Assembly: GCA_001724265.1 (NCBI GenBank)
Contig: MEDY01000019.1
Coordinates: 62,001-126,000 of the forward strand
DNA: 64,000 bases
Source of the DNA: Rhizaria sp. SCN 62-66
Lineage: Eukaryota
Direction of reading: 5' to 3'
Of the stretch, positions 5,445-64,000 are shown in pieces (within the stretch, counting starts at the first letter, position 1; each line of letters starts with the position of its first letter). Both the position numbers and the translations under genes were made by a program. Below the pieces are notes generated by a model. The model saw only the letters and a list, made by a program, of their open reading frames with translations, was not told the DNA's origin and searched no databases.

Positions 5445-8400
5445 ATGCAGCCTGCCCCCGGCCACCCGTCGGCCTACAGCAGCAATCCCTACGCGCTCGC
5501 CGGCCCCCCGCGGCAACAGCAGCAGGCCCCTACAGCCGCATCGGCCGCTTCCGCCTCCGCGTCGGTCGCGACGGCTGCGACAGCTGCGCCGCACAACCCC
5601 TTTGCCCCACCGACTGCCTCCGTTTCTGCCTCTGCTGCGCCGAATCCCTTTGCCCCCCGTCCTCAAACATATGCAACCGCTGCGCTGGCTGGAGCGACTG
5701 GAGTGACTGGAGCTTTTCCCCAGCCTCAGCCACAACCACAGCTTCCACAGCGCTTGCCGACGACAGGCGCGGGGCCAGCGGTGGCATCTCGGCCCAGCTA
5801 TGCCCCCCTGCCGAGCTACGCGCCGCTGGCGCCGCTGCCGGCGCTGAAGCCGCTTATGCCATTCGCAGCCACAGCTACAGCTACAGCTTCAGCTACAGCA
5901 TCGCAAGCGCCAGTGCAGTCGAGCGCGAGCGCGAGTGCTAGCAGTGCGGCGCTGCCGTTTGCGAACAACCCCTTTGCGCCTCGGCCAGTCAGCTACGCTA
6001 GCGATATCGATAGCAATAGCATTAACAGCAGCAGCAGCAGCAGCAGCAGTCAAAATAACACTTATCTAACGACTGCTGCGCCGACCGTCAGTGCCAGTGC
6101 AACTCAAGCTGCTCACAGTCACTCTAGCGATTGCAACCACGGTCACGCTCACGGTTAGGGCCACGCTCACGGCCACAGTCATGGTCCCGGCTCTGCCCCT
6201 TGTACTCACAGTCACTCTGCCCCTGCTCACAGTCAATCACCTAGCTCACAGTCACTCGACACACAGCCACTGCTCCAGTCGCACTTGCAGTCTCAGTCTC
6301 ATAACTCGCGTAGCCCTCAGACATCTGCGGTGAGCCAGCAGTCACTGCGCTCCGTCCCCCCGCTCCCTTCGCTCCTGAGCGGCAGTAACAGTCTGCGCAG
6401 CAGCAGCAGCAGCAGCAGCAGTAGTCCGCTGTACCGCCTGCCCGGTCCCGCGTCCCCGCGCGCGCTATGGCTGGCCGCGCTGTCCCTCTTCCCGATGCTC
6501 CTGCTCCGCTCGCCGCCCCTCTCCTCCCCCTCCTCATCGTCATCATCAGCACTGCAGCAGCGCTCGGTCGCCGCGACGCTCCGCCGCCTCCTGCTGCCGC
6601 AGCCCTACGCAGTGCTGCTCGGCTACCTGCTCTTCCTCGTCGCCATCGCCACCGCCGAGATGGCGTTCGCGGCCTGGACGGGCTACGTCGGCGCGGCGAC
6701 GTCGGGGTTGCACAGGGCCTTCCACGCGGGCCTCGTCGCCGTCGCACTCGCGGCTGCGGCGCACGCGCGGATCAGCCCCGTCGACGCGCGAAACACACTC
6801 AGCAACAACAGCAGCAACGCGAGCAACAACAGCAGCAGCTCCGGTGTCGCTCGCGGTGGCGGCAGTAGCGCGACCGTCATGCTCTCGCTGCCGCTGCCGT
6901 CCCTGGCGGCCACGCGCGTGCCCGTGCTGGTGGCCTTCGCGCTCACGTCCTCGGTGCTCTTCACTTCGGTCTTCCACAGCCTCGAGGCCGTCCACGGCTT
7001 CCTCTCGCCCGCGCACGCGCACGCGCACGAGGACGAGCACTCTCTGCTGCCGTTGGCCGCCGCGCTAGCGGACTTCGCGGCTGTCGCGCTGCTCGCCGCC
7101 GCAGGGTTTGGCCCGCTCGCGGCCGGCGACTGGGCCACCGCGGGGCTCCACGCGCCTGATAGCACCACCAGCAGCGGCGCCAGTCATAGCGGCGGCGGGG
7201 GTGCAGTGCCGCGGACGGCGACGGGGGCGATCGACGTGTTCGCGTGCGTGGAGCTGGCCGAGACGGTTTCCAAGGCGGCGGCTGCGTCTTCAATGTCTCG
7301 CGCTCACAGTCACGGTCAGAGTAGCACGAGCGCTAGATCCAGTTCTAATATCAACGCTAACGATGGAGTTGTTGGCTTGGCTCCGGGGATTGACTATTTC
7401 GCCGAAGAGCAAGACCAGAACACTGCTGCTGCTGCTGCGAACGGCATCAACAGCAGTGGAGTCTACAGCTCTGACCACGACCACGATCACGATTACGGTC
7501 ACGGTCACGGTCATGGTGCGGGTGCAAATGCGAGTTCAGCGGCCCCAGGACTCATCGCTTTCCCCCTCAACTGCTCCATCGCGTCCCTCACGCACACCTT
7601 TAGCTCTCACGCCATTGCCAACACCAACACTGACGCTCACGGCTCTCAATCAAGCTCCTGTGCGAGTGTGTCGCCGCCGCCGCCGCAGCTGACGGTGGCC
7701 GCGGCGTCCCCAGGCGTGCTGCTGCATTGGCGGGCGCACACGCTCTCGGCCGACCACACGCTGCTGCCGGCGCTGAGCGTGCTGCTGCTGTCTTCGGGTC
7801 TGATTCACAGCCACCCGCTGGCTGCACCCGCGCTGCACCTGCTGCTCGACCTCCACGCCTCGGCGCTCGCGACCACGCTGCTCGCGGCCGCGCTGCTCTG
7901 TGCCGTCGCCGCGCCCGCCGCGCGCGCCGCCGCCGGCGTCCTCGTGTTGGCTGTGCCCCGCGGGGCCCGGCGCGCGGCCGTCGCTGCGGCGGCGGACGCG
8001 GCGGCGGCGATGGCCACGGCCAGCGGCGGGGGCGGCGGCGGCAGCGCGGATGTCATGAACAGCGGTTATAACAATTGCGGCGGCAAGCTCGCGTTGTCAT
8101 CCGCGCAGACTAATAGTGCTGCTGCTGGTAATGTGGTTACGGCTGTCACATGCAGTGAGCAGCAGCCCGTCCAGCTGTTCACGGTGTCCCGCATCGCGTC
8201 CGTGACCGCGTATCTGCCGACGCCGCACTCGCTCGCCGTCTCCGTCGCAGTGCTCCTGCGGCCCTGGCCCGCCGCCGCCGCTGCGCACGGTGCTCAGGTG
8301 ACTGTGGGCAGCCATGCCGCGACGCGCGCGATGCGGTGCCGCCACCTGGGCACGGCCGCGGGCGCCGCGGTGGGGCCCTGGACGGCGGCCGAGGTCGCCG

Positions 8401-8501
8401 CGGCCGTGCGCGCGGCCGTGGGCGCCGCGGTCGGCGCCGCGGAGGCGGGCGGGCGCGCGCTCAGCACGGTGACAGTGAGTACTGAGGTGGAGAAAGCGTA
8501 A
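5445..8501 (+). CDS. Cation diffusion facilitator (ZnT/MTP-like) metal transporter, divergent; spans an in-frame TAG at 6156-6158
   Basis: ORFs 5403-6158 and 6285-8501 are in the same frame, separated only by one TAG inside a His-Gly repeat. CDF-like segments: AEMAFAAWTG..GLHRAFH, TRVPVLVAFALTSSVLFTSVFHSLEAVHGFLSP, GVLLHWRAH; His-rich loops; ends TAA. About 1018 aa if TAG is read as sense. Confidence 0.65.
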
Positions 8502-11795: not shown

Positions 11796-14447
11796 ATGTC
11801 GCACGCCGCTGCGCCCCCTGCGCCTCCCAACGGCTCCCTACCGTCACAAGCGTTGTTGAATTCATCCGCATTGGCGAATGAGCACGATGCAATGACAGGC
11901 AACGCCTCCGCACTCCTCGCTAACGATAGAACCACGCCTTCGCACAAAATCACGCCTACGAACGCTGCGGGCACTAGTAACCACAACCATAACGCCAACG
12001 CGAGCGACCCTCTCGCGCACGCGCACGCGCACGCGCACCACACGCACAGTGCGCCGCAGCCGTTCGTGCCGCAGTTCCCGACTCTCAAGGCACTGCTTAT
12101 CTACGCGCTGCGCAGCTTCACCAAGTCCTTCCTGATCGGTTACGGCATCCGCTCCGGCTTCCAGGTCGTGCTCCGCATCATCACGCTGCTGCGCTCATCC
12201 CCGCGCACGCTGCTCAACATTGACGCCGTCTTCGGCGCCGGCTCCACGCTCGCGCGCGCCGACGCCGTGCGACTGGGCCTCTTCTTCGGCGGCTTCACCG
12301 GCCTCTTCGAGCTCACCTACAGCTTGCTCGACCGCTACCGCGGGCCCGACGACGGCTGGAGCGCCGCCATCGCGGGCGCCGTCGCGGGCTTGTCGATCCT
12401 GTGCCAGCGCGGCGACACGCACCGCACGCTGGGCCTATATCTTTTCGCGCGCGTCGTGCAGTGCGTTTACAACGGGCTTAAGGCGCGCGGCAAGGTCTCC
12501 CCGCTGCCGCATGGCGACGCCGCGCTCTTCTCCATCTCCAGCGCCGTCGTCATGTACTGCTACGTGCTGCGCCCCGAGGCGCTGCCCAAGAGCTTCTACA
12601 ACTTCATCCTGCGCACGGGCCCAATCTCCGAGGTCTCACTGCGTGTAGTGCGACACACGACCTACAACGTGCCCTTCAACACCGACGCCATCAAGAACTT
12701 CATCCGAGACAAGTTCGCCTCGTCGCCTGGCTACTACTCCTGGTTCGCGTCCAGCGCTGCGCAGACGATCCCCGCGGCCGCCGTGCCCGCCATGGTCGCC
12801 GCCGCGATGCCCACGGTCCCCACGGTCACCCACTCCCTGCCCACGATCACGAACGCGGTGCACGCCGCGACGGCAGCGGCGACGGCGGCCGCGGCGGCGC
12901 TGCCCGCGGCGGCCGCGCCGGGCGCCGCGACGAAGCTGGACTCAGTCTACGCGTGGCTCTGGAGCGTCCTGCAGTCGAAGCGCGCCGCCGCCAAGCTCCG
13001 GCTTGCGGCGGCCGCGCAGGCACAGACGACCAAGGCCATCGCCAACTCAGCAGCCTCAGCCGCATCGGCCGCGGCAGCCGCTGTGGGCGCCGCCGCGGCG
13101 ACTGCGAGTGGGCTTAAGGGCGTGCTAGACATGGACGTCAAGCTCGCGGCGCCTCTGGTCGACAAGAGCGTCGCTGCCGCTGCTGCTAGCACCGCAAACG
13201 CTGGCGCCGCCGCTGCACTGACCGGGGAGGGCAAGGCCGCGCTGCGTGAGGCACTCATCCACCAGATGTTCGGCACCGGCGGCGTTTCCACTGCTGAGGC
13301 CGCCGCCGCCGCTGCTGCTGCCGCAGCCGCCACTGCCACCGCTGCGACTGCCGCGACAGCGACTGCCGCCGTCGCAGCCACTGCCGCTGGCGCGACGGCG
13401 ACTGCCGCTGCTGCTACCGCGGCCTCTGCCGCGACTAAGGCCGCCTCCAAGGCTGCTGCGACCGCGCTGTCGCCGTACGCGATGCCCACAGTCACCACGG
13501 CCGCCGTGTCGGCCGCCAAGCGCCGCGCCGAGGCGCTCGTCTTCGCCCCGCAGCCCGGGTACGCGCGGTGCCTGTCGACGTCGCTCGCGCTGTCCGGGAC
13601 CACCCAGGCCACCGCGGTCGCAGACTCGTGCGGCGGGTCCTTCGCGAAGCTGCCGTGCCTGGGGCTGCACCCGCAAGTGCCGCACTCGTGCGCGGCCAAC
13701 GGGGCCCGGGTGTTCCACACCACGGTGGAGAAGATCCTGCCGCTCTATTCGTCGCTCACGGTTGTGCCGCTGGTGCTGTTCAAGAACGTCAAGCTGCTGC
13801 GCGACCCGCTCAAGTACCTGCTCGAGGCTTCGGGCTCGATCCTGCGCTCGTGCTTCTTCTTGGGCTCCTTTACGTCGGTGTACCAGTGGTGCATCTGCGC
13901 GCACCGTAACGCCACGCCCTTTGGCGGCAAGGAGTCCAAGGCCGTTATCTTCGGCGCCGGGCTTGTGTGCGGTTTTGTGTCGATCCTGTTCGAGCGCAAG
14001 TCGCGCCGCAGCGAGCTCGCGCTCTATGTGTTGCCGCGCGCCGTCGACGCGTTGCTTTACATCCTGCGCGAGAAGCGCCTGCTACCGGGGCCCGCGCTGG
14101 GGTCCTTCGCCGTCGAGAACGTTTGGGTCTGGTGCGCCGCGATGGGCGCGCTGAGCTACTACTTCATCCACGAGCCGCAGCACGTGTCCGGGCTGGTCTA
14201 CACCGTGATGAAGTACCTGTTCGGCAGGGACCCGGCAGCGATGCGCGCCTGCAAGGCGGCGCTCCAGCAGCAGCAGAGCAAGAACAACAGCAACAATAAC
14301 AGCAACAACAGCAACAGCACTCAGGCGAACTCCGCTGTTGGTTTGACTAGCGATGGCGCTCTGAGGAAGGATCACGGTGACAATGCTGTCAACGGAAATG
14401 CGCTTGTTGATGCGACGGGTGTTGCTCCTGTTGCTGTCAAGGTTTGA
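11796..14447 (+). CDS. TMEM135: TMEM135 (PMP52)-like membrane protein with long Ala-rich insertion
   Basis: RLGLFFGGFTG, LGLYLFAR, HGDAALFSISSAVVMYCYVLRPEALPKSFYNFI, C..LHP...SC, ILRSCFFL, FERKSRRSELALYVLPRA match the TMEM135 family; ends TGA. Confidence 0.85.
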   Translation: MSHAAAPPAPPNGSLPSQALLNSSALANEHDAMTGNASALLANDRTTPSHKITPTNAAGTSNHNHNANASDPLAHAHAHAHHTHSAPQPFVPQFPTLKALLIYALRSFTKSFLIGYGIRSGFQVVLRIITLLRSSPRTLLNIDAVFGAGSTLARADAVRLGLFFGGFTGLFELTYSLLDRYRGPDDGWSAAIAGAVAGLSILCQRGDTHRTLGLYLFARVVQCVYNGLKARGKVSPLPHGDAALFSISSAVVMYCYVLRPEALPKSFYNFILRTGPISEVSLRVVRHTTYNVPFNTDAIKNFIRDKFASSPGYYSWFASSAAQTIPAAAVPAMVAAAMPTVPTVTHSLPTITNAVHAATAAATAAAAALPAAAAPGAATKLDSVYAWLWSVLQSKRAAAKLRLAAAAQAQTTKAIANSAASAASAAAAAVGAAAATASGLKGVLDMDVKLAAPLVDKSVAAAAASTANAGAAAALTGEGKAALREALIHQMFGTGGVSTAEAAAAAAAAAAATATAATAATATAAVAATAAGATATAAAATAASAATKAASKAAATALSPYAMPTVTTAAVSAAKRRAEALVFAPQPGYARCLSTSLALSGTTQATAVADSCGGSFAKLPCLGLHPQVPHSCAANGARVFHTTVEKILPLYSSLTVVPLVLFKNVKLLRDPLKYLLEASGSILRSCFFLGSFTSVYQWCICAHRNATPFGGKESKAVIFGAGLVCGFVSILFERKSRRSELALYVLPRAVDALLYILREKRLLPGPALGSFAVENVWVWCAAMGALSYYFIHEPQHVSGLVYTVMKYLFGRDPAAMRACKAALQQQQSKNNSNNNSNNSNSTQANSAVGLTSDGALRKDHGDNAVNGNALVDATGVAPVAVKV

Positions 14448-16865: not shown

Positions 16866-16899
<34 letters not shown>

Positions 16900-18692: not shown

Positions 18693-24850
<6,158 letters not shown>

Positions 24851-36971: not shown

Positions 36972-37506
36972 GGGTGGGGACGGACCGACGACGCGGACAG
37001 GCAGTGTTTGCAAACGAAGGGTGTTGAGGATTCTGGTTTGAGGTACACCTAGCGCCTCGAAGGTAGTAGCTGTGCAAGTGTAAAAGAAGATAAAAGAAAA
37101 GTACAGTTAGAAATATCCGGAGAAATTCAAAACAGTGAGTTTGACGGAGACATGATCGCGCTTTGAAGTGAAACAAGTTGCCCGTTCGTTACCACTTCTC
37201 GCCTCTGCAACCTGCTCAGTCCGCCGCATTTCTCCCGATTGCTTCTGGCGCCTCGTTCGCACCGCTCGCGCCGATGATTAGAAACAGGGGGAGACTTCCG
37301 TCATTGCTTTCAGTTTTTCAATATGCTGCTTATGCGCTACTTTTCTACCGTCATGCAAAATAGTATCTTCAAAATATCCTATATCTCTCTAAGTCAGCCT
37401 CATCTTCCGTTCACCTATTTTCACTGTCTCGCCCCTTCGCAGTGCTTTCTTTCTTCGTTTGCACTTTTTTTCTTTCTGAAAGCGTTTTTTTCTACTCCCG
37501 CGCGCG

Positions 37507-46500: not shown

Positions 46501-49500
46501 GCGCTGTCGGTCAAGGGCATGTTTCTGCTGACGGGCATCGAGGGCAACTTCGACCGCGCGCGCAGGGAGACATACCTCGCGCCCAAGTACCTCACCGCGC
46601 TCGGCAAAGCCAACCACCGCGGCGTGGCGGCGGGCGGTGCGGCGGCCGCGGCGGCGCTCGCTGGCGCGATCGCGCGCGGCGAGGCGCGCGTGCAGCTTGA
46701 CCACGAGCTCACGTCCCCGCTCGCCGCGCTGGTCAACGTGCTCATCAACCACAGCTCCGAACGCACGCGCGACGAGGCGCACCGCGTGTATCTGCCGCAG
46801 CACCTGATCGCGCACTTTCACGAAGTCGTCGCAGCGTACCCCGGCGAGGACCTCGTCGAGCTCAACGGTGTTGGACTCCTAGCGCCGCCATTGACGCACA
46901 ACGGCGTCGACCTGACGCGCGAGACGGATGTGGTGCTGCCGGGTGGCGACGGCGTGTGCCGCCTTGTCGAAACCGTGTTCGAGTCCAAGGACGTTGCGCA
47001 CTTGCACGCGCGCTCCAAGCAGCTGCTGCAAGCGTTTCTGAACCACCCGTCACTGGCGGGCAGCGCGGACCCGGCGGTGCTGGCTCTGCTGCTGGCGATG
47101 CCGCCGCCGCTGCACGGGCACCACACTGCGCAGTTCGCGGGGCAGCTGGGCGCGGCGTCGCACCTGCTGTTCGAGAGCGACGCCGAGCGCGCCGCCACGC
47201 AGGTCGCCGCGGCGCCCACGCCGTCGCTGCAGGAGGCCTTTGAGGACGGACTCGTCTCGGCGCCCGCCGCGCGGTGGCTCGCCGCCGCCTGGCACGAGCA
47301 GGAGACGCTCTGGATCCAGGAGCAGCAGCAACAGCAGGAGATTCTCTCCTCGACGATGGCCACCGCGCTTGCGTCGGCGCCGCTGAGCTCCATCCTGCAC
47401 ACACCCGGCGCGCTCCTGTCCCCGCTAGCCGCGGCCAACGAAGTTGCGTCGCCGACCGACATGGTGACGCTGCCGTCGAATCACCTCATGACATCGCCGG
47501 AGGTCCTGCTGGCGCAGCTGCGGCAGCGCATGGAGGTCCGGAACAGGTTTGGATTGCCCACCAGTGGACCGCCGCAGGCGCTGTTTTCGCCGCCGCCACC
47601 CCCGCCGCCACTGCCAGTGCGCACCACGGCCTCGGGCGTGACCTACACCGGCGCCCCCACGCTGTCGATCCGCCGCAGCGCGCGCATCGCCAACGCGGCG
47701 TTCCGCGCGCACTTCAACCTGACGTGTATCACGGGCATCTCCGTCGGCATGGGTCTGGTCATCAACAGCTCGTCCGCGATCGCGGCCAACGAACTGGGCG
47801 CGGGCGGCGCACCAACGTTTTACGCCACGCAGCTGTGCGGGCAGATCTACGGCCAGGCGGGCGTGCACTCGACGGTCAAGTCCACCACCGCGCTGCACGT
47901 GAACCCGTTCCGGCTGCAGCAGGACGCCGACCAGGACGCTGCGGGCGACGCCACGGGCTTCGGCGCGCTCACCTCGACGGCCGTGGGCGGCGCTGGCCGC
48001 GACCGCAGGCGCGTGGCACAGATCTTCTCGCGCTCCGGCTTTGCGGGCATCTTTGCCGCAACCGACTCCGAGGGATTTTACGCCTCGGGCGGCGGCCGCG
48101 GCCGTGGCTCGCGCTCCTACGCTCTCTCGCCGGGCGGCTCCGCGGGCGGCAGTGCGACGGGCGCCGGCATGTTGGGCCGCCCGGGCACCGCGTACGTGCT
48201 CACGGCGAGCGGCGCGCCGGTGGAGCCCGTCATGTCGCGCGTGCTCGTCGCGGGCCCCACGCTCGCGCGCAGCGGCTTCAACGCTGCGCCCACGTACACG
48301 GCGCCCATGTCGACCGTCGAAGTCAACCCGCAGCGGTACCACGGCCGCACCGCGCTGTCGGCGCTCGTTGCGGCGGAAGACGACAAGTCCGCCGCGGCCT
48401 CGGTCTCGGCCACCAACGCCAGTGCGATGTACCAGTGGTCCTACGCGGGCGGGCTGGGCGCGCTGGTGCTGGCCGACGGTGCGACGGCGCACATGCCGGC
48501 CATCTCCTCGCTCTCGCTCGGCAACGGCGTGCGCGTGCCTGCTTTCTTGCTCTCCGCGGTGAACCGGTACTTCGTGCCCAACCCCATGCACGCCGCGCAC
48601 ATCGGGATGGGCGGCAATGGCACCCCGGACGCGCAACGCCGCGGCGACGGTGCGAGCAACCGCGGCAGCGCGCGGTCGACCAGCAACGCCGCCGCGGCGT
48701 CCGGGCTGGTGAACGTCGACCGCACACATGTGCTGCACGGCTCCGGCGGCGTCAACTCAATCACGCACATGTCGTCCTTCTATGGCGACGCGGGCGAGAC
48801 GTACGTCACCTTCCAGCAAGTCATCTCGCAGGTGCTCGAGGAGAACGCCGAGCCGCGCGTGCTGCGCGCAGTGCGCACGCGCCAGGCGCTATGGTCGCTT
48901 GGAGTGCCCACGTCCAGCGCTTCCGAGACCGGCCAGGGCACGCTTAGCGCCAGGCTCGGCTACACTCCGCGCTCGGGCGGCGGCGCGGTGGGCATTGCGG
49001 CCGCCGCTGCCGCCGGGCTCGCCGCCGCCGTGGCCGCGTCAAGAGGCCCGGGGGACCGGTCCGGCGCTGGCGGCGCGAGCGAGGCCGGCGTTAGAGGGCT
49101 GCGCAGTATTCTCCGCCGCGGCAGCTTCACCGGGATGCGCGGAGACAGCGACGCGTTGCACGGCGACCTCTCCGACCCCGCGCTGACTGCGGGCGCAGTG
49201 CCGTCGACCGCGGTCGCCACGTCGTCGCTGCTGTCGGCTTCCGCGGCGTTCGACTTGCTCGAGATCGACGAGAATGAGACGCCCGCGCGCATGCTGATGA
49301 AGTTCCTCCGCTCCTCGCAGTGGGCCGCCGCGCGCGAACGCACCGCGACGACGTCGCGCAGCGTGCTGCACTCGATCGGCTTCTACTACAAGCCCGAGTT
49401 CGACCCTTCAGTCGACTCACCGGGCGCTGAGCGCACTCTCGTGCAGCGCGGTCGTGTCGACGCTGCTCTCGCAGCAGCCGAGGACAACGCCGCCGGCGAA

Positions 49501-52500
49501 GACGCGCTGCTGCGCCCGGCAGCCTCCGCCGGCGGGCCCGGCACTGCGACGGCCATCTTCACGAGCGCGCTGCCGACCGCGACGTACAAGCTGGGCGGGA
49601 CCGTGGTGACCGTGCACGCGTACAACGCCACGCTCCTCCAGCTAGACAAGTCGTGGGCCATCAAGGCCGCGATGGCGGCCGGCGTGCCGCCGCCCGCCAG
49701 CGCGCTCGCTGGCACGCCACCCGCGACCGCGCGCACGATGGCACGCTCCAACGCGGTGATGACTGCCCTGGCGCGGTCGGACATGCGCATGCGCCCGCGC
49801 CCCACCGCGCTGCGCGCGACGGACCTGATCCCGCGCTGCATCACGTTCACGGCGCTGACTTGGCGCCAGGTGACTGAGAGCATTGTGCGCCCAGCGACCG
49901 TGTTGCTCAGTCTGCCCGAGCGCGTCACGCGCAAGCAGGCGAGCCCCGCGCACTCTGCGGCGTCCTCCGTGGGGGCGGCTGACCCTGGTCTGCTGCCGCG
50001 GCTGCCGCCGATCGACCTCTCGGCCACCGAGGGCACTGCGCCGCGGCACGCCTTCGTCTTTGGCTGTCTGCCAGGAGAGGACTTACCCGCCGGCTCGCTG
50101 CACTCACTCTCGCTGTCTGAGCACATCGCGCAGCTCAACCCCATGCGGCTCTCCCCGACGCAGCAGCTGCAGCTGAACATCATGACGTCGCGTCTGCGCG
50201 CGCTGCGTGCGTTCACCATTTTGCGCCCGCCGACCGCGACCGACTACGCGTGGAGCACGAGCTCGACCTCGGCGACCCTGCTCATCAAGCACGCCATGTC
50301 GCTCAACCCGAACCCGCTCGCGCGCCTCTCGGCGTGCTCCGGCGTCGAGCGGCTGCTGCGCCTCATCCAAGGCCTGCTCGAGCGTTCGCCGGTCCACACC
50401 GCGTACATGCACTTCTGCGGGCTCAAGGCCGTGTGCCAGGTCGTCAACCCGCCGCAGTGGGTCGTCACGCCCTCCGCGGCCACGCTCGGCGGCTACGTCT
50501 ACACCGCGCAAGGCAAGGCCGTACTCTTCACGAGCAAGAACGAGGCCTTTCCCTACGGCCTCATGGCGCGCCGCCGCCGCCTGCAGCTCAAGCGGCTCGC
50601 GTTTATCGCACGATATGCACCGGCAGTGCTCAACTCGCCGAACCTCGATGGCGAGGACCCCACGGCTGCCGCCGAGGCCGGTCTCCCGGAGGCTGGGCTG
50701 GGCTTCTCGGCCGCGCTGTACCGCAAGGTCGTGCGCGTGGCCGTGGAGCGCTACTCGGACCACGCTCTGGCCACGGCCGTTGCCGCTGCGGGGCGCGCGA
50801 ACATCCCCCGCGCGCCCACAAGCGCCAACGGCAACGTCTCCGGCTCCGGCGGCGGCGGCGGCGCGGGCGGCGGCGGCATCAACACCAGCGCAGCCGCCAG
50901 CGCCGCGCGCGCGTGCCTGCTGCCACAGTCGGCGACGGGCACCGCAGCCGCGGTCGCCGCGGGCGGGTCGTCCCCGTTCCTTGCGCTGCGCCGCGGGCTC
51001 ACTGCTGCGGCCGCGGCGCCGACCGTTTCGAGCGCCAACGCGGCCGCGCTCGCCGCCGTGGCCGCGGTGTCGGCTGTGGCCAGCGCCGCGGGCTCGCTCA
51101 CCCCGCCCATGCTGCTTACCAGTCTGTCCGGTCTCGCGCCGGGGCCCGGCAGTGTCGCCGGCGGCAGTAGCGCCAGTAACGGCGGCAGCGGCGGCAACAG
51201 CGCCAGCGCCAGTGCGGCGCCGTCGGCCCCGTCGCTGACGGGCAGCGTGGACGAGCCCCCACTTGTGTCCGCGCGCATGCTGCAGACGCTGCACCACTAC
51301 GCCGACCTGACTGGCGGCACGCTCGCGTCGCTGTCGCCCACGGTCGGCACATCGATCGGCGACGACCTTAAGGCGTGGGAGTTCGCCGCATCGCTTCCCT
51401 CAGCGCTCACGTTCGCCGGCCTGTCGATGTTGTGTCCGCGCAACGCATCGCTCGACCCCGCAGACCTGTCCGCCGCGGCGACGGCGCTCGCGGGCGGGGC
51501 GTATGCGCCGCTCACTATGCCCAACAAGCGCCGCGGTGCCAGCGGTCTCGGCGACGAAGACAGATCTGGCTCCGGCCTCGCTGGCGACGGCGCCAGGCTA
51601 AACAACAACGACAACGACAACCTGTTGTGGCCCAACGGCGACATCGCGCTGCCAAACGTCACCGCGGGGCTTTTTGCCGCCGCGCCGGAGCTTACTGTGC
51701 TGACCAACGCCGGGCTGCTCACTGCGGACCCGACGTCGACGACCGACCTCGCATCCTCGCTCACGCTTGCGTACGACCGCTGGGACTGCTCCCCCGACAT
51801 GCCGTCCGCGCTCGCCGTGGCCTCGCCCAAAGTCACCATCTTCGCTGGCGGCCGCCCATCGGGCGCCCCCGTGACTGCGACCGCGGCCGGGGTGGCGGCG
51901 CCCGCGTCCCCGCTGTTGGCGCCGCAGCGCGGCTACGGCATCCACGGCGCGATGCCCGCGAACAAGCGACCGAACGATCCCGTGGCGCACCCCACGCGCG
52001 AGTCGATGCCGTCGCCCGCCGACGCCGACGCCGCGCTGCTGCGGCTGGGCGCGCTGCTCACGGGCGCGCCGCGCGTCCCGCTGCCGCGCCCCGCCGCCGC
52101 GCTGCCCGCCGTGCTCGCCGTGTCCAGCGCCGTGCCCTTCGGCCGCGACCCCGAAGTCGCCGAGGTGCTGCAGAACCTGTCGTCGGTGTGGCAGACGGGC
52201 CGGTCGCGCATTCTGCACCTCAACAGCTCAGCGGGCTCGGGTCGTTCGCTGGTGATCGCGCTGTTTTTGGCCGCGTTCGCGCACCCGCCGGACATGAGTC
52301 GGTACGTGAGCAACACGCGCGAAGGCACGGACCTGCGCATGCTGCCCCCCTGCATTAGCGCGTTTATGGTGCAGGCGCAGCCCAACGTGCAGTCCACGCC
52401 GTTCTTCGTCTACAAAGACCTGCTGTTTGACCTACTGTGCACGCTGCGTCCGCCGTCGTCGAACTCGGCGACGGTCTACGAGAGCGACGACATGCTTAAC

Positions 52501-55500
52501 TTCTCGATCGAGTCCGAGGCGCGCGTGCGTTCTTACGAAGAGGGCTTCTCGCGCCCCTCGCACGACTGCGCTGCGGCCGCCGCTGCCGCCGCTGCTGCTG
52601 CTGCCGCGGATCGCTTTTCCGGCAAGGCCTCGCCGCGCAGTCGCCGCAACGCCATCGGCGCGAAGTGTCCCTTGGCGCGCGCGTCGCCGCCGACCCGCGG
52701 CGAGGCTGTCGCCGCGCTGGCCTCGCTCGAAGTCGCCGCCACCGCGCCCAGCGCGCTGGCGTCTGCCGCCGCGCGCACGTCCAAGCTCAACACCGTCACG
52801 GCGTACGTGCTGCAGAACCTGAACCACGACCCGGCGGCGCGCGGACTGCACCCGCGCGCGCTCGCGGCCCGCATCCGCAAGCAGCTGGCGCGCCGCCCCA
52901 CGGTTGCGCCCACGCTGCCGTACGCGCTCCGCGGCGGGCGCGGCGCCGCGGCGGCCGGGGCTACTGCGGCGGCCGTCCGGAGCGCCAAGGCGCCCGCTGC
53001 GGCTGCGGCCACGAGCAAGGGTGCGACTGTTGCCGACGCGGACGACGAGGACGACGGCTTTGACGAGCGCACGTTCGGCGAGCTGGAGCGCGACTATGTG
53101 CAGACGCTGCTCCGCGAGCGCTGGCAGTCGAAGCCCCTCCCGGGCATCAACAACGTGCTCTTGGGTCTGCAGGACAGCGTTGACCTCTACCACCGCAGGC
53201 AGGCCATGCAGGCGCAGATCGTCGCGTCGGCCGTGCACGGCGGCAACGCCTCGGCCGCGGCCGCTGCGGCTGCCGAGCTGACGGCGGCGCACCAGAAGGC
53301 ATGGCAGATGCGGCGCGCGCGCCGCAAGACTGAGGCCGCTGCGGCCGCATCTGCAGCCGTGTCAGCCGCCGCTTCTTCTTCAGCCACTGCTGTAAACGGC
53401 CTCAATGCGGGTGCGCACGGCAGCAAGGTTAGCGTTTCCGCTTCCTCGAACGGCCAGCAACAGCAACAACAGCAACAAATGCTGCAGAATCCGTTAGGTA
53501 AGGCTGCTGGCCGTCAGCGCGCCTTTTATCAGAGTTCTCTCAACAGCCAGGCAAGCAGCACCAGCAATTCTGACCCGAAGCCCGCCGCTCCAGTGCGCGA
53601 GGGTCCGTTTGAAACTCACGTGCGCCGGTGCTTGCCCCCAAGCTTACACAGATGGATTCCGCTGCTCAACGACTTCCTGGACACTTCGTTCATTGAGGAC
53701 GAGACTACCAAGAACATGACTGCTACTGAACGTGCCGATAACCTCAACACGCTTCTGTTCGCCATCTTCGACGTGACCGCGGTTCCGATCCCGGCTGAGA
53801 TGCAGATTGCGCTCGACGACCTCGACGAACAAGTCATGTCGTCTCGGCGCCAGGCTGGCAAGCGTGCGCGCGCAGCGGCGGCTGAGACGGCGGCTGCTGC
53901 GCGCGAAGACCTCCGCGTGTCCTCGAGTGTGGACCTCGAGTCGGCGCAGATCGAGCGCGGCGGGCCCGAGGGCCGCTACGGCGCCGTGCTGACACAGCAG
54001 ACGGGCCAGTTCACCGGTAAGGCGTTTTACGAAGACGTGGAACACTTCAGCGTGCGGTTCAGGGAGATCGCGCTCGCGACACCGGCGCAGCCGTTCGTGC
54101 CGCTGAGCATCCACGTGCCGCCGCCCGTGACTGACCCCGCGAGCGGCGTCTCGTGTGCCGCGGCCGCGATCGCCGCGGCGTCCGCGACGTGGGCGAACGA
54201 GACCGTGGGCGGGTGCGCCAGATCGGGGTCGCGTGGCGCGGGCGTGCTCAAGACGCTCGGCACGCGGTTCGTCATTCCCCGTGTGATCGTGGTCACGGGC
54301 GCCGAGTGGCTGGACGCGGCGTCGCGCCAGCTGCTCACCGAGCTCGTACAAAAGGTGCAAAACATCATGCTCATCTTCTCGACGCAGCGGTATGAGCGCA
54401 ACCCGGCGACCAGCAACGCCGCTGCGGGCGCCGCCATGGCGACTCTCGCCGCGGCCACCGCCGTCGCGAACGGCACTAACCTCAACCCCAATGCATCTGT
54501 CGACGCCAACGGCTTGATTCCTGACGCGATTGACCCCGCCATGGTTTCCGCGTCGGCCGCATGCGCGTTCGGAGCGGACATCAACCACAAGTGCGACTAT
54601 AACGTGATGGTGCGCGTGAGCCGGCTGACGCTTGACCGGTGCGCCGCCATGGTGTTCTCGCTTTTCGGCGCCGTGCTGGGGCCCAACTACCTCACCTCGG
54701 TGCTGCACCGCGAGAGTGAGGGCCATCCCGGTGTCGTATTCGAGATGTGCAAGCTGATTGCGCAGTCGGGCGCCACGGTCACGCACGGATGGCTCGCGGT
54801 CGAGGAGCGCATGCTCTCGCGTCTCACTAGCGGCTCCGGCGAGTTCGTCGAGTCGCGCGTTACCGCAATGGTCGGCCAGATTGACCGTCTGCCGGTCGAC
54901 CTGCAGATCACGCTCAAGACGCTCGCCGTGCTCGGCCCGCGCGCCGGTCTGATGACACTCAAGAGCATCCACCCGACCACGAGCTCGGGGCAGATGCTGC
55001 TGAGCCAGTGCCAAAAGCTCATCAGCACTGGCCGCATCTACCACTATGTTGAGAACGGAGAGGACTCTTTTGCTTTCGCGCAATACTTGGCGAGTAAGGC
55101 AGCGTATAATCTGCTGTCGCTCGATCAGCGCCGGAAGATGCACCTGCTCTGCGCGCGCGCACTGCGGTCCGAACTCGCCTCACTGCGCCAGACTGACAGC
55201 GCGGCGCGTGTGGAGGCTCTGTACCACATCTCGCAGCTTCTCGCGGCTAAGTCTGTGCCGCTCGAGTTTGCGCGCGCCACCGCCGCAGCCGCGCTCGCTG
55301 CCGCTGCCAACGCCTCCGCGTCGGGCTTGACCACGATGCCCGCGACCGCGGCGGCGTTCTGCGACGCGTCGTCGCTCGCGCGGTCCCTGTTTGTGCACTC
55401 CGGCGCAGCGCGCGCGTTCAACCGCATCAACGCGTGCGAGGGTCACACCGAGTTCTCTTCGTCGACGCTGCTGCGCATGCTCGTCAACGCGCAAGTCATC

Positions 55501-58500
55501 GCGCTGGGCCTCACGCTGCCGTCGACGCAGGACCCTGACTTCGGCGTGCTGAACGACAACCTTGACCCGTATCTCGACGCAGAGGACCTCAGTCACATGC
55601 TCATTCTCGCTCTGCGCGCCCCCGTCAAGTGGCACTCTGCGCCTTGCAACGCGCACCCGCTGCCGTCGCCGGCGTCGCCCAGCCCCGCCGGCAGCGGTAG
55701 CACGCCGGCCGACAGCACCGCCGGGTCACGTCCGCTGGACATGCTCGACCGCTTCCGCGTGATGCGCCACCAGCTGCTGCTCGAGGCGAGCGCGGACGTG
55801 CTGGTCAAACGCTTGAGACTCATCCACGCGGCGCTGCGCTTTAATGCGCGCTATGAGGAAGCTGTTTCACCGACGGCAACTGCTGCCGCTGCCAATGCTG
55901 CCGCTGCTGCAGCTGCGGCTGCGGGCGGCGGCGCGACTGTCGGGGCCGCTGCCGCCGCTGCTGCTGCGAACGCGAGCGCTGCGGGCGCCGCCGCCGCCGG
56001 CAATCTGTTGCTGCCGGTGACGGACGCGATGACTCTTTACGCTGACATGATTTCTCTCTATCTCAAGGAGGGCTCACTCTACACGCCCAACGCGGCGCTG
56101 CCGCTGCTTTCTGCGGTGAAGAAGCACCAGGCGCAGCTTGTGATGCAGCTGCTCAAGGACCTACCGCCGCTGCCGCAGCGCTTCCCGCGTGCTAAAAAGT
56201 CCCAGTCGCACTCGCGCGCACCCACTACGCAGAATACGAGCAGTAGTGCGAGCACGGTTGCTGGCTCTAGCGCTGCCGCGACTGCGGTGGCAACGGCCAA
56301 CGCCCGCGCCACCACTGCCGCCTCCGCAGCCGCTGCGCTGACCACGGCCGCCGGAATCGCGTCCCCGACTGGCGTCTTCGGCGTCAACCGCAAGCCGCTG
56401 AGCGTGAGCGTGAGCGTGAGTGACGGCGGCCAACTGACCAGCGCAAACGATTTCGGTGACGCGTCCCCGTTTCAGCACCAGCAGCGGCAGCGGAGAGACA
56501 GCGCGGCCAGCGTCCACAGCGCTCTGTCGGGCGCGTCTGGCTCGAGCCACAGCGGCAGCCTCTACGGCGGCGGCCGCTCGGTCCGCGCAGGCAGCGTCTA
56601 CAACGCCTCGGATGCTGGCATCGACGTCATTGCTGATGCGGAGGTGCGTGCGAACGCGGCCACGAGAATTCCAGGCATGTTCGGCTTTGGCTTCGGTGCC
56701 GGTATGGGCGGGCTTAAGCCCAACGTCGTCGTTCCCTCGCTCGAAGTGCACGAGATGTACAACATCAGCACGTCTGCGCGCGACTACCTGACGTACGAGC
56801 GCCTGTCTCTGCACCTGACGCGCGCCCACGTCGAGCAGTCCGCGCAGCGCTACACGCTACTGGCGGCCACGCGCGCGCTCTCGTTTGAGAAGGACCGCTC
56901 CGCTGCGCTGCGGCTGCTGCACCGCTACGCCGACAACATGCAGGGCCGCAACCCGCTGGACGCGGCGCGCGTGGACGAGCTGCTGTCGCTGCATTATTCG
57001 CGCCACGGATTCCACCACGACTCACTGCCCTTCACCATGGCGTACCTCGCGCGCTGCGGCGTCCCGCTGCCGCTGCCGGGCTACCCCGTCATCGGCGCGC
57101 TCGTTGACGAGCTCATGGCGCCCTTCTACACCGACCCTGTGCGCAGGATGCTCGGCATTTACGTCTTCGCGGAGCCCGACATCATGCCCACCGCGGCCCC
57201 GCTCGGCGGCGCGCGCGTGTCTGCGTCCTCCACCTCGTCCTCCGCCGCAGTCGCCGCGGCCGCAGCTGCTGCTGCGACAGGCCCGAAAACTGCCGCCGCT
57301 ACAGCTACGAGTCCCGGCATCACCACCGGCGCCGGCGCTGGCGGCGGCGGCCACAGCGGCGGCGTCTCGCTGCTGTGCACCGAGGGCGACGTGATGAACG
57401 TGTCGAACCCGATCGTGCGCCACATGCTGCTGCTGCACGACTCGACGACGCTGCGCGAGGACTGCGCGCACCACGCCCGCAAAGTGCTCTCGCTGCTCAC
57501 GGGCAATATCACCTCCGCGCTCACGCGGCTAGTGCTCGCGCTCAAGCACTCGACGCAGCCGAAGCTGGAGGTGATTCCGGCGCACGAGCTCAAAGCCATT
57601 GCCGACGTCATGGCGTCCACGGCGACCACGTCGCTGTCGGCCGACGCGTACGCGCAGTGGGCTGGCGCGCTCTCCTCAGCGGGCCTGCACCTGGACCCGT
57701 CCGGCGGCATGCGCGTGACGACGATGCCGCTGCGCACGCGCTACCACGAGGCGCAGTCCGCCGCCTGCGGCTCAGACCCCGAGGTCGCGGAGGCCGACGG
57801 CGGCGGCAAGAAACGCCCCACGCCCGCGATGCCGTCCGACGCTGGCGACGGCGGCGACGCGGGGAACATCGACGCGAGTCTGAGCGGCGACAGCAGCTCC
57901 AGCGACTTCGGTGTCGCGCAGGTGCCCGGCACTCCTGCCGCGGTCGGCTCCCCGGCGCGCGCGAGCGGCACACGCAAGGACGGCGCTGGCGGCGCCGGGA
58001 ACTCGCAGGGGCTTAGCCCGCCTGGCGCGGGACAGACCCCTCTCGGCGGCAACGCAGGCTCTGGCGGCAACAGTCTTACGCCCTCACCGCGGCCTTCTGG
58101 ATCGACCCCGCTGCCGGAGCCCGCCTCGGCTGGCGCTGCTGTGGGCGCTGCGGGGGCTGCAAGCTCACACAGCGCGGCCGCAGATGCTGGTTCATCCTCG
58201 TCTTCATCGTCGTCGTCGTCGTCAGCCACGACACAAGGCCAGGCTGCTTCTGCTGCGGGCAACAACACGGCGTCCTCGGGCTCTGGCTCTTCTGCGCCGA
58301 CGACGACCTCCGCTGCCGTGACCGCGCCGGTGCTGCCGTCGACTCTCGTGACCGGCCACGGCCTCTATCAGCACGGCCCCGGCACCAACACCTCCGCGAT
58401 CCAGGCCGCGCTCGCGTCGGCCGTCGCGTTGCCCATCACGCGCGGTAACGTCGAAGTCGTGCGCAGCGGCGCCGTGTGGGACATCGTGCTGGACCAGCTC

Positions 58501-61500
58501 GACCGCCGCGCCGGAGGGATCTACTCCAAGGCCGCGCTGCGCACGCGCGTCGGCCCGGCAGGCACCGGGACCGCAGCCGCGGTTGCTGCCGCATCGGCCA
58601 ACGTCCCTGGAGCTGCTGCGGCCGCAATCGCCGCCGCCGCTGCAGATGCGCTATCTTTGCCCGAGTTTGTGCAGAACGCGATCCCGCCCGAGGTGCACGC
58701 CTCTGTGGTCGCGCTCTTCGTCCCGCCGCGCATTGCGCTGGGGGCGATGCGCATGACCGGCATGGGCTCACTCATGGCCTCGCAGCTGCGCCGCGCCGGC
58801 ACGCCCGCGCCAGAGCGGCCCGCGCTCGGTCCGTTCAACATCCTGCTGCCGTATTCGCGCCTTGCGCCGTCGCCGGCCCCCGGCGCGCCCGCTGGCGGAC
58901 ACTTCGCCAACACCGTCGCGTCGTCACTCACGCGGCCGTACTCGCTACACACCCTCGCCAGCGGCATCCTGCCCCACGTCGCGCTGTCTCCGGAGGAGCG
59001 CGTGCTGCTGGAGCGGCAGCTGCACCTGTCGCTCGCGGCCGTGCCCGCGCCCGCGCAGCGCGACGCGCAGGCGCTGACAGAGCGCTCGCTGATCGACGCC
59101 GCGGTGCACGTCCCCGGAGGCACCCACAGCGCCGTGGGCGCGATTCCCTTTGCGCCGGGCTCATTCGCGGTGCCGCTCGATGGCGAGGATTCGCCGGTGT
59201 ACGGATTTGGTGAGCGCATGCTGTTGCCGGTCGACGGGCTCGCGCGAGGATCTGCGGCGGCCGAGGCGTCGCTGCGGCCGTCGCTGGCGCTGCAGCTTGA
59301 GTACTCGACGGGCATCTCGGACACGAGCAGCGCGATGTACATCAACGTCGTCACCAAGAAGCTGCTTGCACTGGAGAAGATCCCCCCGTCGGTCGCCATG
59401 CATATCGCGCTGCGTTTCCCCTTTGCGTTCGACCTGGTGTCGCTACAATGCGCGCTCAACTCGCACCAGAAGCGTACGATGCACTCGGCGCAGCAGGCCG
59501 CGTCCGGTCTGCTGGGCCGCGGCGAGCAGCTCGTGACCGTGGTGAACATGGCGCGGCCGTACAACCGACGTCTGCTGAACCTCGCCGTGCAGTCGGTCAA
59601 CTCTGCCATGTTCCGCACGCTCTCCAGCGGCCGCGGCGAGGCTGCTGCGGGCCTGCTCAACCCGGGACCCAGCTACACCCCTATCGCGCGCGCGCTCGCG
59701 GCCTCGGCAAATGCTCGCAACGAGGAGATCTTCAAGCGCATCGTCGTGTTCTTCCGCCGCCTGCTCGGCTCGGTCGACGCGCGCCGCGTGTTCCGCGAGA
59801 CTGACCACGTTATTCCCGACTCGGTGCTCACGCGCGCACACGTACCCGCGCTCATGTGTGCCTTTGGGCCCGAGTTCCCACAGCTCACCGAGCAGGCCCC
59901 GAACGCGACTGCTGCTGCCGGCGCCGCCGCAGGGATGGGTGTCCAGTCGCCGCGCGGGCCTGCGGGCGTTGCCGGCGTCAATCCCTCCGGCGGCCTGCAC
60001 GACTGCGCGCTGGCGGCGATGCTGGGCACGCTCTCCGGCTTTGGCCAGCGCGGCATCCCCGACCCCGGGCAGATGATGGCGGCCGCCAGCGCGGTGGCTT
60101 CCTCGGTGTCGAGCCACATGATTAGCGGCGGCACCGTCGGCACCAACGACTCGCTGCTATCCGCGTTCGCGGGCGGGTACGTCGTCCCGGGCACCGGCGA
60201 GGTCATGATCCCCACGACGCGCGCTGAGACGATGTTCACGCGTGTGCTCTCCGCGATGAGCATCCTTGCGCGCACGCATACCGACAACGGCCGCGCCGCC
60301 GACGCGCTGCCGCTGATGTCCTACGTCGTCAACACGTACTCGCGCATCGTCGGCAAGTCGCGCCACTTCATGCGCTTCTTTTACTTCCACCAGGCCATTG
60401 CGCGGCTGCAGCTCGGCTTCCTGCGCCGCTCCCTCAGCGTCTCGGCCATCATCGCTCGCAGCGCGGCGCAGGACTCGGAGCACCTCCACGGCTTCCTGTC
60501 GGCTGTACTGCGCGCGTCGGCGCTGACGATGCTCGAGGGCCCCAGCGCTGCCTCGGTCGACGCGCTGCGGCACGCGCTCTTTATGATCCAGGAGCTCCGC
60601 ACCATCTCCGGCATTCACGCTTTGACGTCGACCGTGCTGTTCTTCTCGCTCCATGCTCTGCGTTCGCGGCAGAAGCTGCTGCTCGAGTTCCTCAACACGC
60701 TCAACGACTGGTCGCTGCTGCCTGCGACGGGCAACTACGTGCATGTCTACATCACGCTCTCGCTGCTGTTCCAGCACGCGATCGACGACCCCAACGTGTC
60801 GCCCTTCGCGGCGGCGACCGCGCGGCATTTCGAGTCCGCGTTCGGGCCCGTGGTGGAGATGGCGCGTCTGCACCTGTCGGGCGCGGCCGTGATGCGCGTG
60901 CTCAACTCGCAGCGCCGCATCGCGCACGACGCGCTGCACATGGCTGCGGCCACAACCAAGATGGCGACGATGACGGCGGCGCAGACGACGGCGACGTTCA
61001 TGGACGCGAGCGACGACGTCAGCAGCGACGCGCGGTCCACGCGGCCGCAGTCGCGACAGCCCTCGCCGCCGGCCACCGCAGACCCCAGCGAGCTGGTGAG
61101 ACGGGACGGGACCATCGACGTGTGGCTGCCCTCGGCCGTCCCCGCGTCGGCGTCCGCCGCGGCCGCCACCGCCGCTGGCGCCGCGAACCCTGCCGCCGTC
61201 CCCACTGCGGGCGATTCCCCGGGCGCGGTGCGCCGCAGAGCTATGTCGACGAGCTCGATCCACGAGTCGCGGCCGACAAGCGCGACCATCACGACAGCGG
61301 ACGCGAGCACGAGCACGTCGCCGCTGCGGGCGCTGCGCGGGATCGACCCCACGCTGCTGTCGTACACGCGAAGCAGCGATAACGCGACGCCGATGCTCAA
61401 CAAGAGCAACAGCGTTGCAATGAATCGCAGTGGCGCCAACAGTGTCCGCGGTGACAACTACGGCGTTGAGCCGCCCTCTCATCTCTTGAAGGACGCCAAA

Positions 61501-64000
61501 TCCCTCGCGAGCAATACGTCCGTTCCTCACAGCATCGTCAACAGCAGCAGCGTCTCTGGCTCTCCCATGGACAGCACCGACGACACTGCAGCGGCCATTT
61601 CCGCCCGGGCCCCGCGCAACCAGAACTGGCAGAAACTGATGCGCGTCATCAACGCTGAACAGCTGCCCAACAACGACACAGTCACGACTTTTTTACCCCC
61701 GGCCCCGATCTTTTTTACCGGTGCGGCGCCTGCGCCCATCCCCATGTTCACCTTCAGCAACCCCAATAGCAGCTCGAGCTCAAGCGCTGTCAGCGGCTCC
61801 AAGTGGGGCGACGACTCCCCCAACGGCGACGTCGACGCGCGCTCCTTCACCACCGCCGGTGACAACGACACCACGCCCGTAGACCCGGCGCAGGCGCAGT
61901 CGCAGGCTCCGGCGACCCCTATAGTGTCGGCGGCGCTGCCGCGCGGCGTGACGCCGCTCGTCACGGGCGTGCGCACCGCCGAGCGCAGGCGCACGCGCGA
62001 GCGCGAGCGGGCGAGCCAAGCTGCGGGCCGGACAGCGGCGCCTGCGCAGTCGGGGGTTGTGCCTAGCAACCGCAACAACAGGGGCGGCGGCGCCACATTC
62101 GACCCGAGCCCGGCCTGGCAGCGGTCCGTGAGCGCGTCCTCTAGCTCCGACTCCGGCGCCGGACAGGGCATGCTGTTCCGCGGGCTCAGCGCCCCGTTCA
62201 TCGCCACGAACAACAACAGTAACATCAACAACAAAAACAACAACATCAATACGAGCTTTGACGGGGAGTCCGGCGGCGCACCGCGCTCGCGGACGCCCGC
62301 CAGCCCCAGCGGCTCCAACGTCAACGGTGGCGGTAACAACACGCCCCCAGTTGCGGTGCCCAAGTTCTCCGTGATGTCGCCGAGCTCGCTCTCGCGCTTT
62401 GTCGCCACCGCCACCGCCACAGCGGACTCCACCGCAACCGCGACCGCCTTGCGCAGCAACGGCTCGTCGAGCAAGATCCGCTTTGGCGGGCGCGCTCGCG
62501 CCCCGTCGACGACGTCCACCACGACGACCACAGCGTGCACTGAGCGCGCCCCGCGCCCGCCGCGCCCGCTGCCGCGCGAGACCGCCCGCGCGCGCGCGCG
62601 CGAGGCCCGCCAGCGGCTGCGCATCCTGCTGCTGGCGGACCGCTGGGGCGAGCATGCGCGTGCCAGCCAGCGCGTGTACAGCGCAACCGTGGGCTACGCG
62701 CTGCCGCCGCCTGCCAACGCGCTGACGACCATGACGGGCTACCTCGCACCCGCCGGCAAGGGCAGCGTGTCTTCGGGCTCGGGCCCCAGCGGCAATGCCC
62801 CGGGCTACCGACGCGCGACGTCGGGCGCCGGCAGCTCTGCGGGCACGAGCTCCGGCGGAGGCGGCGGCGGCGGCGGTGGCGCGGGTGTGGGCGGGCCGGG
62901 CGACGCGGGCGGCCGCGGCAAGGACTCCGGTCTGCGCCTCATGATCGGCCTCCGCGCGCTGCCTGCGCTAGGCTCGGTACAGCTCGCCAAGGAGGTCGAC
63001 CCACAGAACATGCTGCTGGTCACCGGCGAGGACGCGACGCCCTGCCCCACGGCGCCGCTGATCGCGCGCATTCGCACAGAGGCGTCCGCTGCGGCCGTGC
63101 GCGAGGCGAAGCGCGCGGCCTCCGCCGCCACCAACGCGTACCAGCAGCGCCGACGCCGCGCGCTTGGCCGCGGCGGCGCGTTCGGCGGGTCCAGCGGGGA
63201 CTCGTCCCCGACCTCGCCGGGTGCCGGCGACGACGACGGGCTCGACGCGGCGACGTCGCAGTGGCTTCGCAACACGCGCCGCGGCCCGCTCGACGGCGGC
63301 GGCACGCAGGCGGCGCGTTGGGGCGAGGACACGGAGGATAGCTCGCCCACGACGCCCAGTTCGCCGACCCCCGGGGTCGAGCGCCAAGGCGCGCGCAGCC
63401 GCGTCACGCAGCAGCCATCGCGGCAGCAGCACCAGCTGCAGCTCCCGGGCGCGCGCGGCCAGGTCGGTCTATCTTCGTACAGCGCGGCCAACAGCAGCGC
63501 GAGCGCGCTAAGCCCACGCAGCAGCGGGCAGCCGCCGCGGTTCCCGCGCCACTTGTCGATCGAGCGCAACCTGTCGATCGACCGCGCGCCCTCGGTGCTG
63601 TCCCCCGGCCGCGGCATGCTGGCCAGCCCCACCACGACGGTCTCGACGCTTGGCGGCAGCACGTTTGGCGGGTCCGCGGTCACCTCGGTCAACACCAGCA
63701 GCAACAACGGCGGTCCGGGCGTGTTCCGCGTCATTCCCGCCTCTTTACCGGGCACTTCGGCGCCGTTGCTTGCGACGGCCTCGCGCGGGCCTCGGCCGTC
63801 GGCCGCAAGTCTCGCTGGCAGTAGCAGTAGCAGCAGCCACTTCAACAACAGCAGCAGTAGCAGCACTACTGGTGGCAGCGGCAGCGGTGACGCACCGGTG
63901 AGCTCGAACAACAGCGAAGGCTTGGGTGACTCGAAGCAGAAGCAGCAGCAGCAGCAACAACAAGGAGGCACGCCCAGGCACCTGCGCGAGCAATGGCAGC
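37507..64000 (+). CDS. Giant soluble adenylyl cyclase (ADCY10)-like protein: two class III cyclase domains + STAND/AAA-type NTPase + helical region; one in-frame TAG at 45823-45825; 3' end beyond the window
   Basis: Starts MGCSAS; CHD1 FIDVSGFTKLSE...GGDVIKFAGDA (resumes near 43690 with LRLHMGIGAG...EFYIAGDP); CHD2 EYRTVTVAF...DDKG...IGVATG...RCEYTAVG..V.LAARL. After the TAG the frame shows no further stop to 64000 and contains PFGRDPE, P-loop-like SSAGSGRS, IPLLNDFL, VIVVTGAEWLDAAS, SEGHP, IDRLPVDLQITLK, AYNLLSLDQRRKMH. At least 8831 codons. Confidence 0.85.

Follow-up and report, generated by a model that had tools for sequence, protein, structure and literature searches.

Does UAG still terminate translation in the eukaryote deposited as Rhizaria sp. 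SCN 62-66, or is it read there as an amino acid? The question is raised by a 64,000-nt stretch of its genome (assembly GCA_001724265.1, contig MEDY01000019.1, positions 62,001–126,000, forward strand; hereafter the window), for which a sequence-only reading had proposed that UAG is reassigned, or constitutively read through, as a rare sense codon while UAA and UGA remain stops. Three genes are each interrupted by a single in-frame TAG, at the coordinates and in the contexts reported by that reading: TAG1 at 6156–6158 (+; CAC GGT TAG GGC CAC), TAG2 at 27328–27330 (−; GAG TCT TAG CCG GTG), and TAG3 at 45823–45825 (+; CCG TCG TAG CCG CGG). An orthologue shows that TAG2 lies inside coding sequence; the same is strongly indicated for TAG3 and plausible for TAG1. 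From this pattern we infer that, on balance, UAG is translated throughout the genome of this organism and does not serve to end genes. The proposal is thereby upheld in that the TAGs are real, lie in coding sequence, and are absent from the 13 gene ends of the window, whereas its preference for glutamine is not, and its genome-wide reach goes beyond the 64 kb at hand.

The first line of evidence concerns the frames in which the TAGs stand. No stop interrupts the same frame for 780 codons after TAG1, 670 after TAG2, and more than 6,058 after TAG3, and the GC content of the next 150 nt is 0.59–0.62 (0.59 at TAG1). Given that stop codons occur in the off-frames of these genes at a density of ~1.9–2.4% per codon, the long open runs after the TAGs are not due to chance (p <1e-5 for a run of at least 670 codons, by our arithmetic). 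Across 16 open reading frame (ORF) pieces, which together contain 18,400 in-frame codons, TAG occurs three times, corresponding to ~1 per 6,000 codons, and TAA and TGA do not occur at all, in agreement with the original claim that genes contain no internal TAA or TGA. The three TAG-bearing genes by themselves (~10,860 codons) are likewise free of frameshifts, TAA, and TGA.

The second line of evidence concerns gene ends. We tabulated 14 TAA or TGA positions (8 TAA, 6 TGA), of which one TAA, at 23122–23124, is intronic; the 13 real ends comprise seven TAA, six TGA, and no TAG, as previously counted. According to our own arithmetic, the absence of TAG from 13 terminators has p = 0.024 if TAG makes up one quarter of stops and p = 0.12 if it makes up 15%, such that the standard-code probability of this outcome is ~0.02–0.12. 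Each of the 14 TAA/TGA positions is followed by 150 nt with a GC content of 0.35–0.49, and by a further in-frame stop after 3–34 codons.

TAG2 lies in a gene encoding a SMYD-like SET-domain methyltransferase, and is the only one of the three sites for which an aligned orthologue was found. The protein scores 23.8 bits against the Pfam SET model (cut-off 22.4). An N-SET motif (residues 134–160 of the translation, P0002) is located upstream of TAG2 (residue 328) and an NHSCRPN motif (residues 740–766) downstream, and the two align collinearly with residues 14–40 and 194–220 of SMYD2, albeit with weak E-values of ~0.016. A split SET domain of the SMYD type is present, consisting of the N-SET strand motif and the C-SET NHSCxPN motif with an insert between them; a structure model of the protein (mean predicted local distance difference test score, pLDDT, 31.6) was unusable for the fold. 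The orthologue, P0005 (817 aa, PF00856), which is the sole relative found among 5.8 billion proteins, runs uninterrupted across TAG2 in an alignment covering residues 26–998. Identity to P0005 is 111/246 (45%) upstream of TAG2 and 245/521 (47%) downstream, and constraint is therefore equally strong on either side of the codon. Judging from the split SET domain and the continuous orthologue, TAG2 is inside one conserved coding sequence.

TAG3 is codon 2782 of a giant ORF that runs off the end of the window and whose sole Pfam match is an adenylate/guanylate cyclase domain (residues 2225–2386). With a codon model derived from the remaining genes of the window, we obtained a positive coding signal in the same frame in every 150-nt segment from −450 to +600 around TAG3. 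The gene-caller product P0006 (2,772 aa) ends exactly at TAG3, and the next ATG lies 33 codons further on, with the intervening 99 nt being coding-like. A search for relatives of a 1,200-aa stretch across TAG3 among 1.84 billion representatives returned its own upstream fragment and one weak 182-aa match, neither of which spans TAG3. Overall, TAG3 very probably lies within a single gene. As a separate observation on this locus, frames antisense to the giant ORF (39813–52532, −) contain neither TAA nor TGA over stretches of up to 1,485 codons and carry many TAGs (15 in the example at 48078–52532), and these frames share the GC-rich third position; counting only TAA and TGA as stops consequently yields false long ORFs antisense to the giant ORF.

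TAG1 interrupts a gene, designated gene 1, whose N-terminal part is disordered and of low complexity, with three NPF motifs, and is followed by His-rich (H-x)n loops and hydrophobic segments, an architecture that suggests a metal transporter. No Pfam family was detected in gene 1, and no homologue of the whole protein or of residues 395–1035 was found among the best 8,000 candidates, which were filled by low-complexity words. TAG1 itself occupies a His position in the repeat H-G-H-A-H-G-x-G-H-A-H-G-H-S-H-G. The frame is open for 254 codons before TAG1, frame 0 is the sole open frame across the region, and the first ATG past TAG1 occurs after ~115 codons. The surroundings are His/Ser-rich and of low complexity, with a GC content of 0.52–0.59; the assertion that GC-rich coding composition continues unchanged past the TAGs thus holds for TAG2 and TAG3 but not for TAG1, which sits in a lower-GC low-complexity stretch where the codon model is ambiguous. 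A location inside a single gene is nevertheless plausible for TAG1, and we regard it as likely.

These observations bear directly on the possibility that the pattern is an artefact, in which the TAGs end separate upstream genes followed by a same-frame neighbour, are intronic, or are sequencing errors. The ATG codons downstream of TAG1 and TAG3, the splitting of genes at TAGs by the gene caller (P0004, P0006), the ambiguous coding signal at TAG1, and the presence of introns in this genome would all be consistent with such an origin. The genes had been treated as intronless by the earlier reading; spliceosomal introns are in fact present, yet do not explain the TAGs. The four introns examined are 112–204 nt in length, with a GC content of 0.34–0.35 and GT[ACG]CG donors. 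Three of these (204, 120, and 180 nt) separate the four exons of the prolidase gene, which join to encode a clean 532-aa protein. The CDP-diacylglycerol synthase gene is also split by introns, and two ORFs at 23149–24750 and 18693–23036 (−) are exons of one gene, divided by a 112-nt intron (23037–23148, GC 0.35). For TAG1 and TAG3, no in-frame intron model with the donor type of this genome would remove the codon. Models that remove TAG2 have a GC content of 0.64–0.66, compared to 0.34–0.35 in real introns, and a 249-nt model ending at TAG2 would also remove a block conserved in P0005. In addition, an artefactual origin already fails at TAG2, where P0005 is continuous; the coding signal is unbroken at TAG2 and TAG3; none of the TAGs is followed by the AT-rich 3′ flank found after all 14 TAA/TGA positions; and identical sequence occurs in independent contigs, as described below. 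We therefore consider this explanation very improbable.

Two further features of the introns were apparent. The three prolidase introns are all multiples of three in length and have a GC content of 0.34–0.35 against ~0.65–0.7 in the exons; the length pattern is probably a coincidence, because the fourth intron examined is 112 nt. That fourth intron contains the apparent TAA stop excluded from the gene ends above, and its acceptor is itself a TAG. No Pfam family was found in either ORF of the two-exon gene that it interrupts.

To what extent the letters themselves can be trusted was evaluated by comparison with contigs from sequencing runs, covering window positions 27000–46500 and hence TAG2 and TAG3, with TAG1 lying outside. 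At TAG2, contigs of runs X1, X3, and X4, from studies P1, P2, and P3 and dated 2015, 2017, and 2025, match the window with 0 differences, and at TAG3 those of X1 and X3 agree with it; neither codon has a listed variant, indel, or joint. A metagenome contig (L001) is also 100% identical to window positions 24345–29222, which include TAG2. X1–X3 may include the source sample of the window itself, and contigs can conceal minority alleles. We took X4 to be DNA, since its contigs pass unspliced through introns. TAG2 and TAG3 are not assembly errors. Elsewhere in the compared region, one X4 contig differs from the window at ~20 positions within 33816–33912, nearly all spaced by multiples of three, the rest of X4 showing 0 differences. 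The differences affect the low-complexity N-terminal region encoded by the MBOAT gene, and could stem from a diverged allele of another strain or from a wrongly placed repeat.

Genuine TAG codons could also arise under the standard code as true premature stops, i.e. recent nonsense mutations that are fixed or dominant and that yield truncated proteins or pseudogenes, perhaps with basal readthrough. With the codon mix of these genes, 64–67% of random nonsense substitutions produce TAG, and the probability that three of three nonsense codons would be TAG is accordingly 0.26–0.30. The argument that internal stops are always TAG and never TAA or TGA is thus correct as a count but weak as evidence. 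All three codons also sit in long genes, within disordered and poorly conserved stretches, and a minority allele might be hidden in the contigs. Set against this, 3 of ~15 genes would have been struck without a single frameshift, TAA, or TGA appearing in ~18,400 codons, and more than 6,700 codons past TAG2 and TAG3 remain intact, with the region past TAG2 as conserved as that before it. The same TAG2 is furthermore carried by runs of three studies spanning 2015 to 2025, and TAG terminators are absent. Taken together, nonsense alleles appear an improbable source of the three codons.

Another alternative is that UAG is ambiguous or leaky, terminating some genes elsewhere in the genome while being read through efficiently wherever a long distance separates it from the mRNA 3′ end, or, by programmed readthrough, in the three genes seen here. 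The very rare in-frame use of UAG would be expected if its decoding were costly or partial, and 13 terminators are too small a sample to show that TAG never stops. Codes in which context decides between stop and sense are known from ciliates and trypanosomatids. A C directly after a stop codon is a leaky context, and C follows the TAG at two of the three sites (TAG2 and TAG3). Programmed readthrough typically involves a single in-frame stop with a long open frame after it, and usually produces a C-terminal extension. Here, a stop at TAG2, in the middle of a catalytic domain, would instead drop the catalytic half of the SET domain. Signals of the kind associated with readthrough were not detected: RNA structure in the 120 nt past the TAGs is no better than in shuffled sequences (z = 1.47, −0.25, and −0.04), and the downstream hexamers (GGCCAC, CCGGTG, and CCGCGG for TAG1, TAG2, and TAG3) have no motif in common beyond CCG at two sites. 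Of the 13 gene ends in the window, 0 are TAG. A leaky or ambiguous UAG hence seems rather unlikely. In this context, TAG2 and TAG3 were observed to share Ser-TAG-Pro with CCG as the next codon (27325–27333, −, TCT TAG CCG; 45820–45828, +, TCG TAG CCG), which may reflect composition rather than a signal because both lie in Ser/Pro-rich stretches.

Several results weigh against the translation of UAG in place of its use as a terminator. Only three sites are available, none of which falls in a conserved column. TAG occurs three times in frame compared to 34 and 79 times in the two off-frames, making it 10- to 25-fold rarer in frame; the in-frame count of CAG is 479. The TTG share of TTG and CTG codons is 122/823 (15%), and extrapolation from this share places TAG ~25-fold below a neutral first-position T/C synonym, by our own arithmetic. 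The compatibility of the codon identities with plain nonsense mutation, and the leaky C following TAG2 and TAG3, belong here as well. At TAG1, the codon signal is ambiguous for ~150 nt on either side and homologues are lacking, and the codon may separate two genes. Neither a tRNA gene (ARAGORN) nor any Rfam family was found in the 64-kb window, and the gene for eRF1 is not within it. Finally, in a poly(A) RNA run (X6), no listed contig spans TAG2 or TAG3, a point that bears on retention of the codons in mRNA and on their translation.

The residue that UAG would specify was also considered. Gln had been judged the best fit, but this assignment finds no support: P0005 has a Pro at the position of TAG2, where the sequence is acidic and unconserved, and TAG1 takes the place of a His in its repeat. 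The residue might be Gln, Tyr, or another amino acid.

If UAG is indeed translated in this organism, it would not be an effective terminator and ribosomes would translate through it, the simplest route being a tRNA that reads UAG combined with weakened recognition of UAG by the release factor. Genes would then end only at UAA or UGA, and UAG would be a very rare sense codon, so far encountered only where large proteins are disordered or of low complexity. Such a pattern would be in keeping with a UAG-only reassignment that is still at an early stage or in which decoding is poor. A more specific and tentative version, which we regard as possible but doubtful, is that of an incipient reassignment in which UAG was purged from terminators and is reappearing as a very rare sense codon in disordered regions. 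This would amount to a natural ‘codon capture’ or ‘unassigned codon’ intermediate in a lineage that belongs to none of the ciliates, fornicates, and rhizarians, for which UAG-only codes are known.

Two published sources provide an opportunity to compare this pattern with known nuclear codes. In the rhizarian exLh (Sainouroidea), UAG encodes Leu and the stops are UAA and UGA; 384 in-frame UAGs were reported across 71 genes, many of them at Leu columns that are hyperconserved (PMC5304391). As in exLh, the in-frame stops here are UAG only and the terminators are UAA and UGA only (56/15 in exLh (PMC5304391), 7/6 in the window), and sequence is all that is known of either protist, both being uncultured. 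In contrast to what is described for exLh, the window holds three UAGs in 18,400 codons with none at a conserved column, a difference that adds to the points raised above. Usage this low sets the window apart from the published lineages in which UAG is reassigned. In Iotanema spirale (Fornicata), UAG encodes Gln with UAA and UGA as stops, and the resemblance again lies in the separation of UAG from UAA and in terminators restricted to UAA and UGA (104/15 in Iotanema); there, UAG occurs on hyperconserved Gln at 22/28 positions, whereas no residue is assignable here (PMC5304391). The present genome further differs from that of Iotanema spirale in being GC-rich with AT-rich introns.

Phyllopharyngean ciliates have independently reassigned UAG to Leu or Gln, with tRNA(CUA) genes, and UAG additionally encodes Gln in Protocruzia and Ser in the green alga Scotinosphaera (PMC11687900). 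The phyllopharyngean cases are similar to ours in that UAG alone is reassigned and that they derive from metagenome-assembled genomes, but they are supported by numerous in-frame UAGs and, for two of the genomes, by genes for suppressor tRNAs (PMC11687900). In our judgement, a 64-kb multi-gene, intron-bearing contig is also unlike a ciliate macronuclear chromosome. The ambiguous stop/sense codes described for Condylostoma, Parduczia, karyorelicts, and Blastocrithidia resemble the present case in that a stop codon within genes is decoded as sense; they employ two or three stop codons in this way, and frequently, while here UAG alone occurs in frame, and rarely. A literature search returned no paper tying a eukaryote of wastewater or activated sludge to UAG reassignment.

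The remaining content of the window is in keeping with its eukaryotic origin, which the sequence-only reading had recognized and which is confirmed by spliceosomal introns and by genes for SF-assemblin, Naf1, TMEM135, MBOAT, SET, and prolidase. The Pfam families found comprise SF-assemblin, Gar1/Naf1, TMEM135, MBOAT, SET, CCCH/RING, FKBP/EF-hand, thioredoxin, M24 peptidase, and CDP-diacylglycerol synthase (Table 1). Coding parts have a GC content of ~0.65–0.75, with ~0.85 at third codon positions (GC3), and the flanks are AT-richer. The DNA of the window was found in bioreactor, wastewater, and activated-sludge runs from several studies. A profile scan of metagenome contigs with the SMYD alignment matched L001 only, in a collection from which the 25-kb contig encoding P0005 is absent, and scans of genome contigs and of viral contigs for the organism or its relatives gave zero matches.

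Table 1. Genes of the window with their extents, strands, and terminating codons
Feature	Extent	Strand	End codon	End position	Remarks
Thioredoxin-like gene		+	TAA	993..995	
FKBP/EF-hand gene		+	TAA	2472..2474	
Gar1/Naf1-domain gene		-	TGA	2882..2884	
Gene 1	5445..8501	+	TAA	8499..8501	no family assigned; holds TAG1
Prolidase (M24) gene	8894-10996	-	TAA	8894..8896	four exons
TMEM135-like gene		+	TGA	14445..14447	
CCCH/RING zinc-finger gene		+	TAA	18381..18383	
Two-exon gene	18693-24750	-	TAA	18693..18695	
SMYD-like SET-domain methyltransferase gene	25315..28239	-	TAA	25315..25317	974 codons from ATG; holds TAG2
431-codon ORF		+	TGA	29940..29942	no Pfam family
CDP-diacylglycerol synthase gene		-	TGA	30768..30770	intron-split
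MBOAT gene		+	TGA	35443..35445	
SF-assemblin gene		-	TGA	35904..35906	
Giant ORF	37480..64000	+			runs off window end; >8,840 codons; holds TAG3

Few nuclear codes treat UAG differently from UAA, those named in the two sources being the rhizarian, Iotanema, Scotinosphaera, Protocruzia, and some phyllopharyngean ciliates (PMC5304391, PMC11687900). If UAG is translated here, the organism would represent a further independent case and a data point on the frequency of code change, in a GC-rich, intron-bearing, flagellum-related eukaryote of engineered water systems. A practical consequence is that gene callers using the standard code break genes apart at TAG (P0004 and P0006 are examples), and the proteome of this organism in public databases is therefore fragmented. 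Should UAG be a sense codon, the organism would stand near the start of its reassignment; the very low usage of UAG would be the most useful aspect of the system, and could allow a test of whether UAG disappears from gene ends before a suppressor tRNA is acquired.

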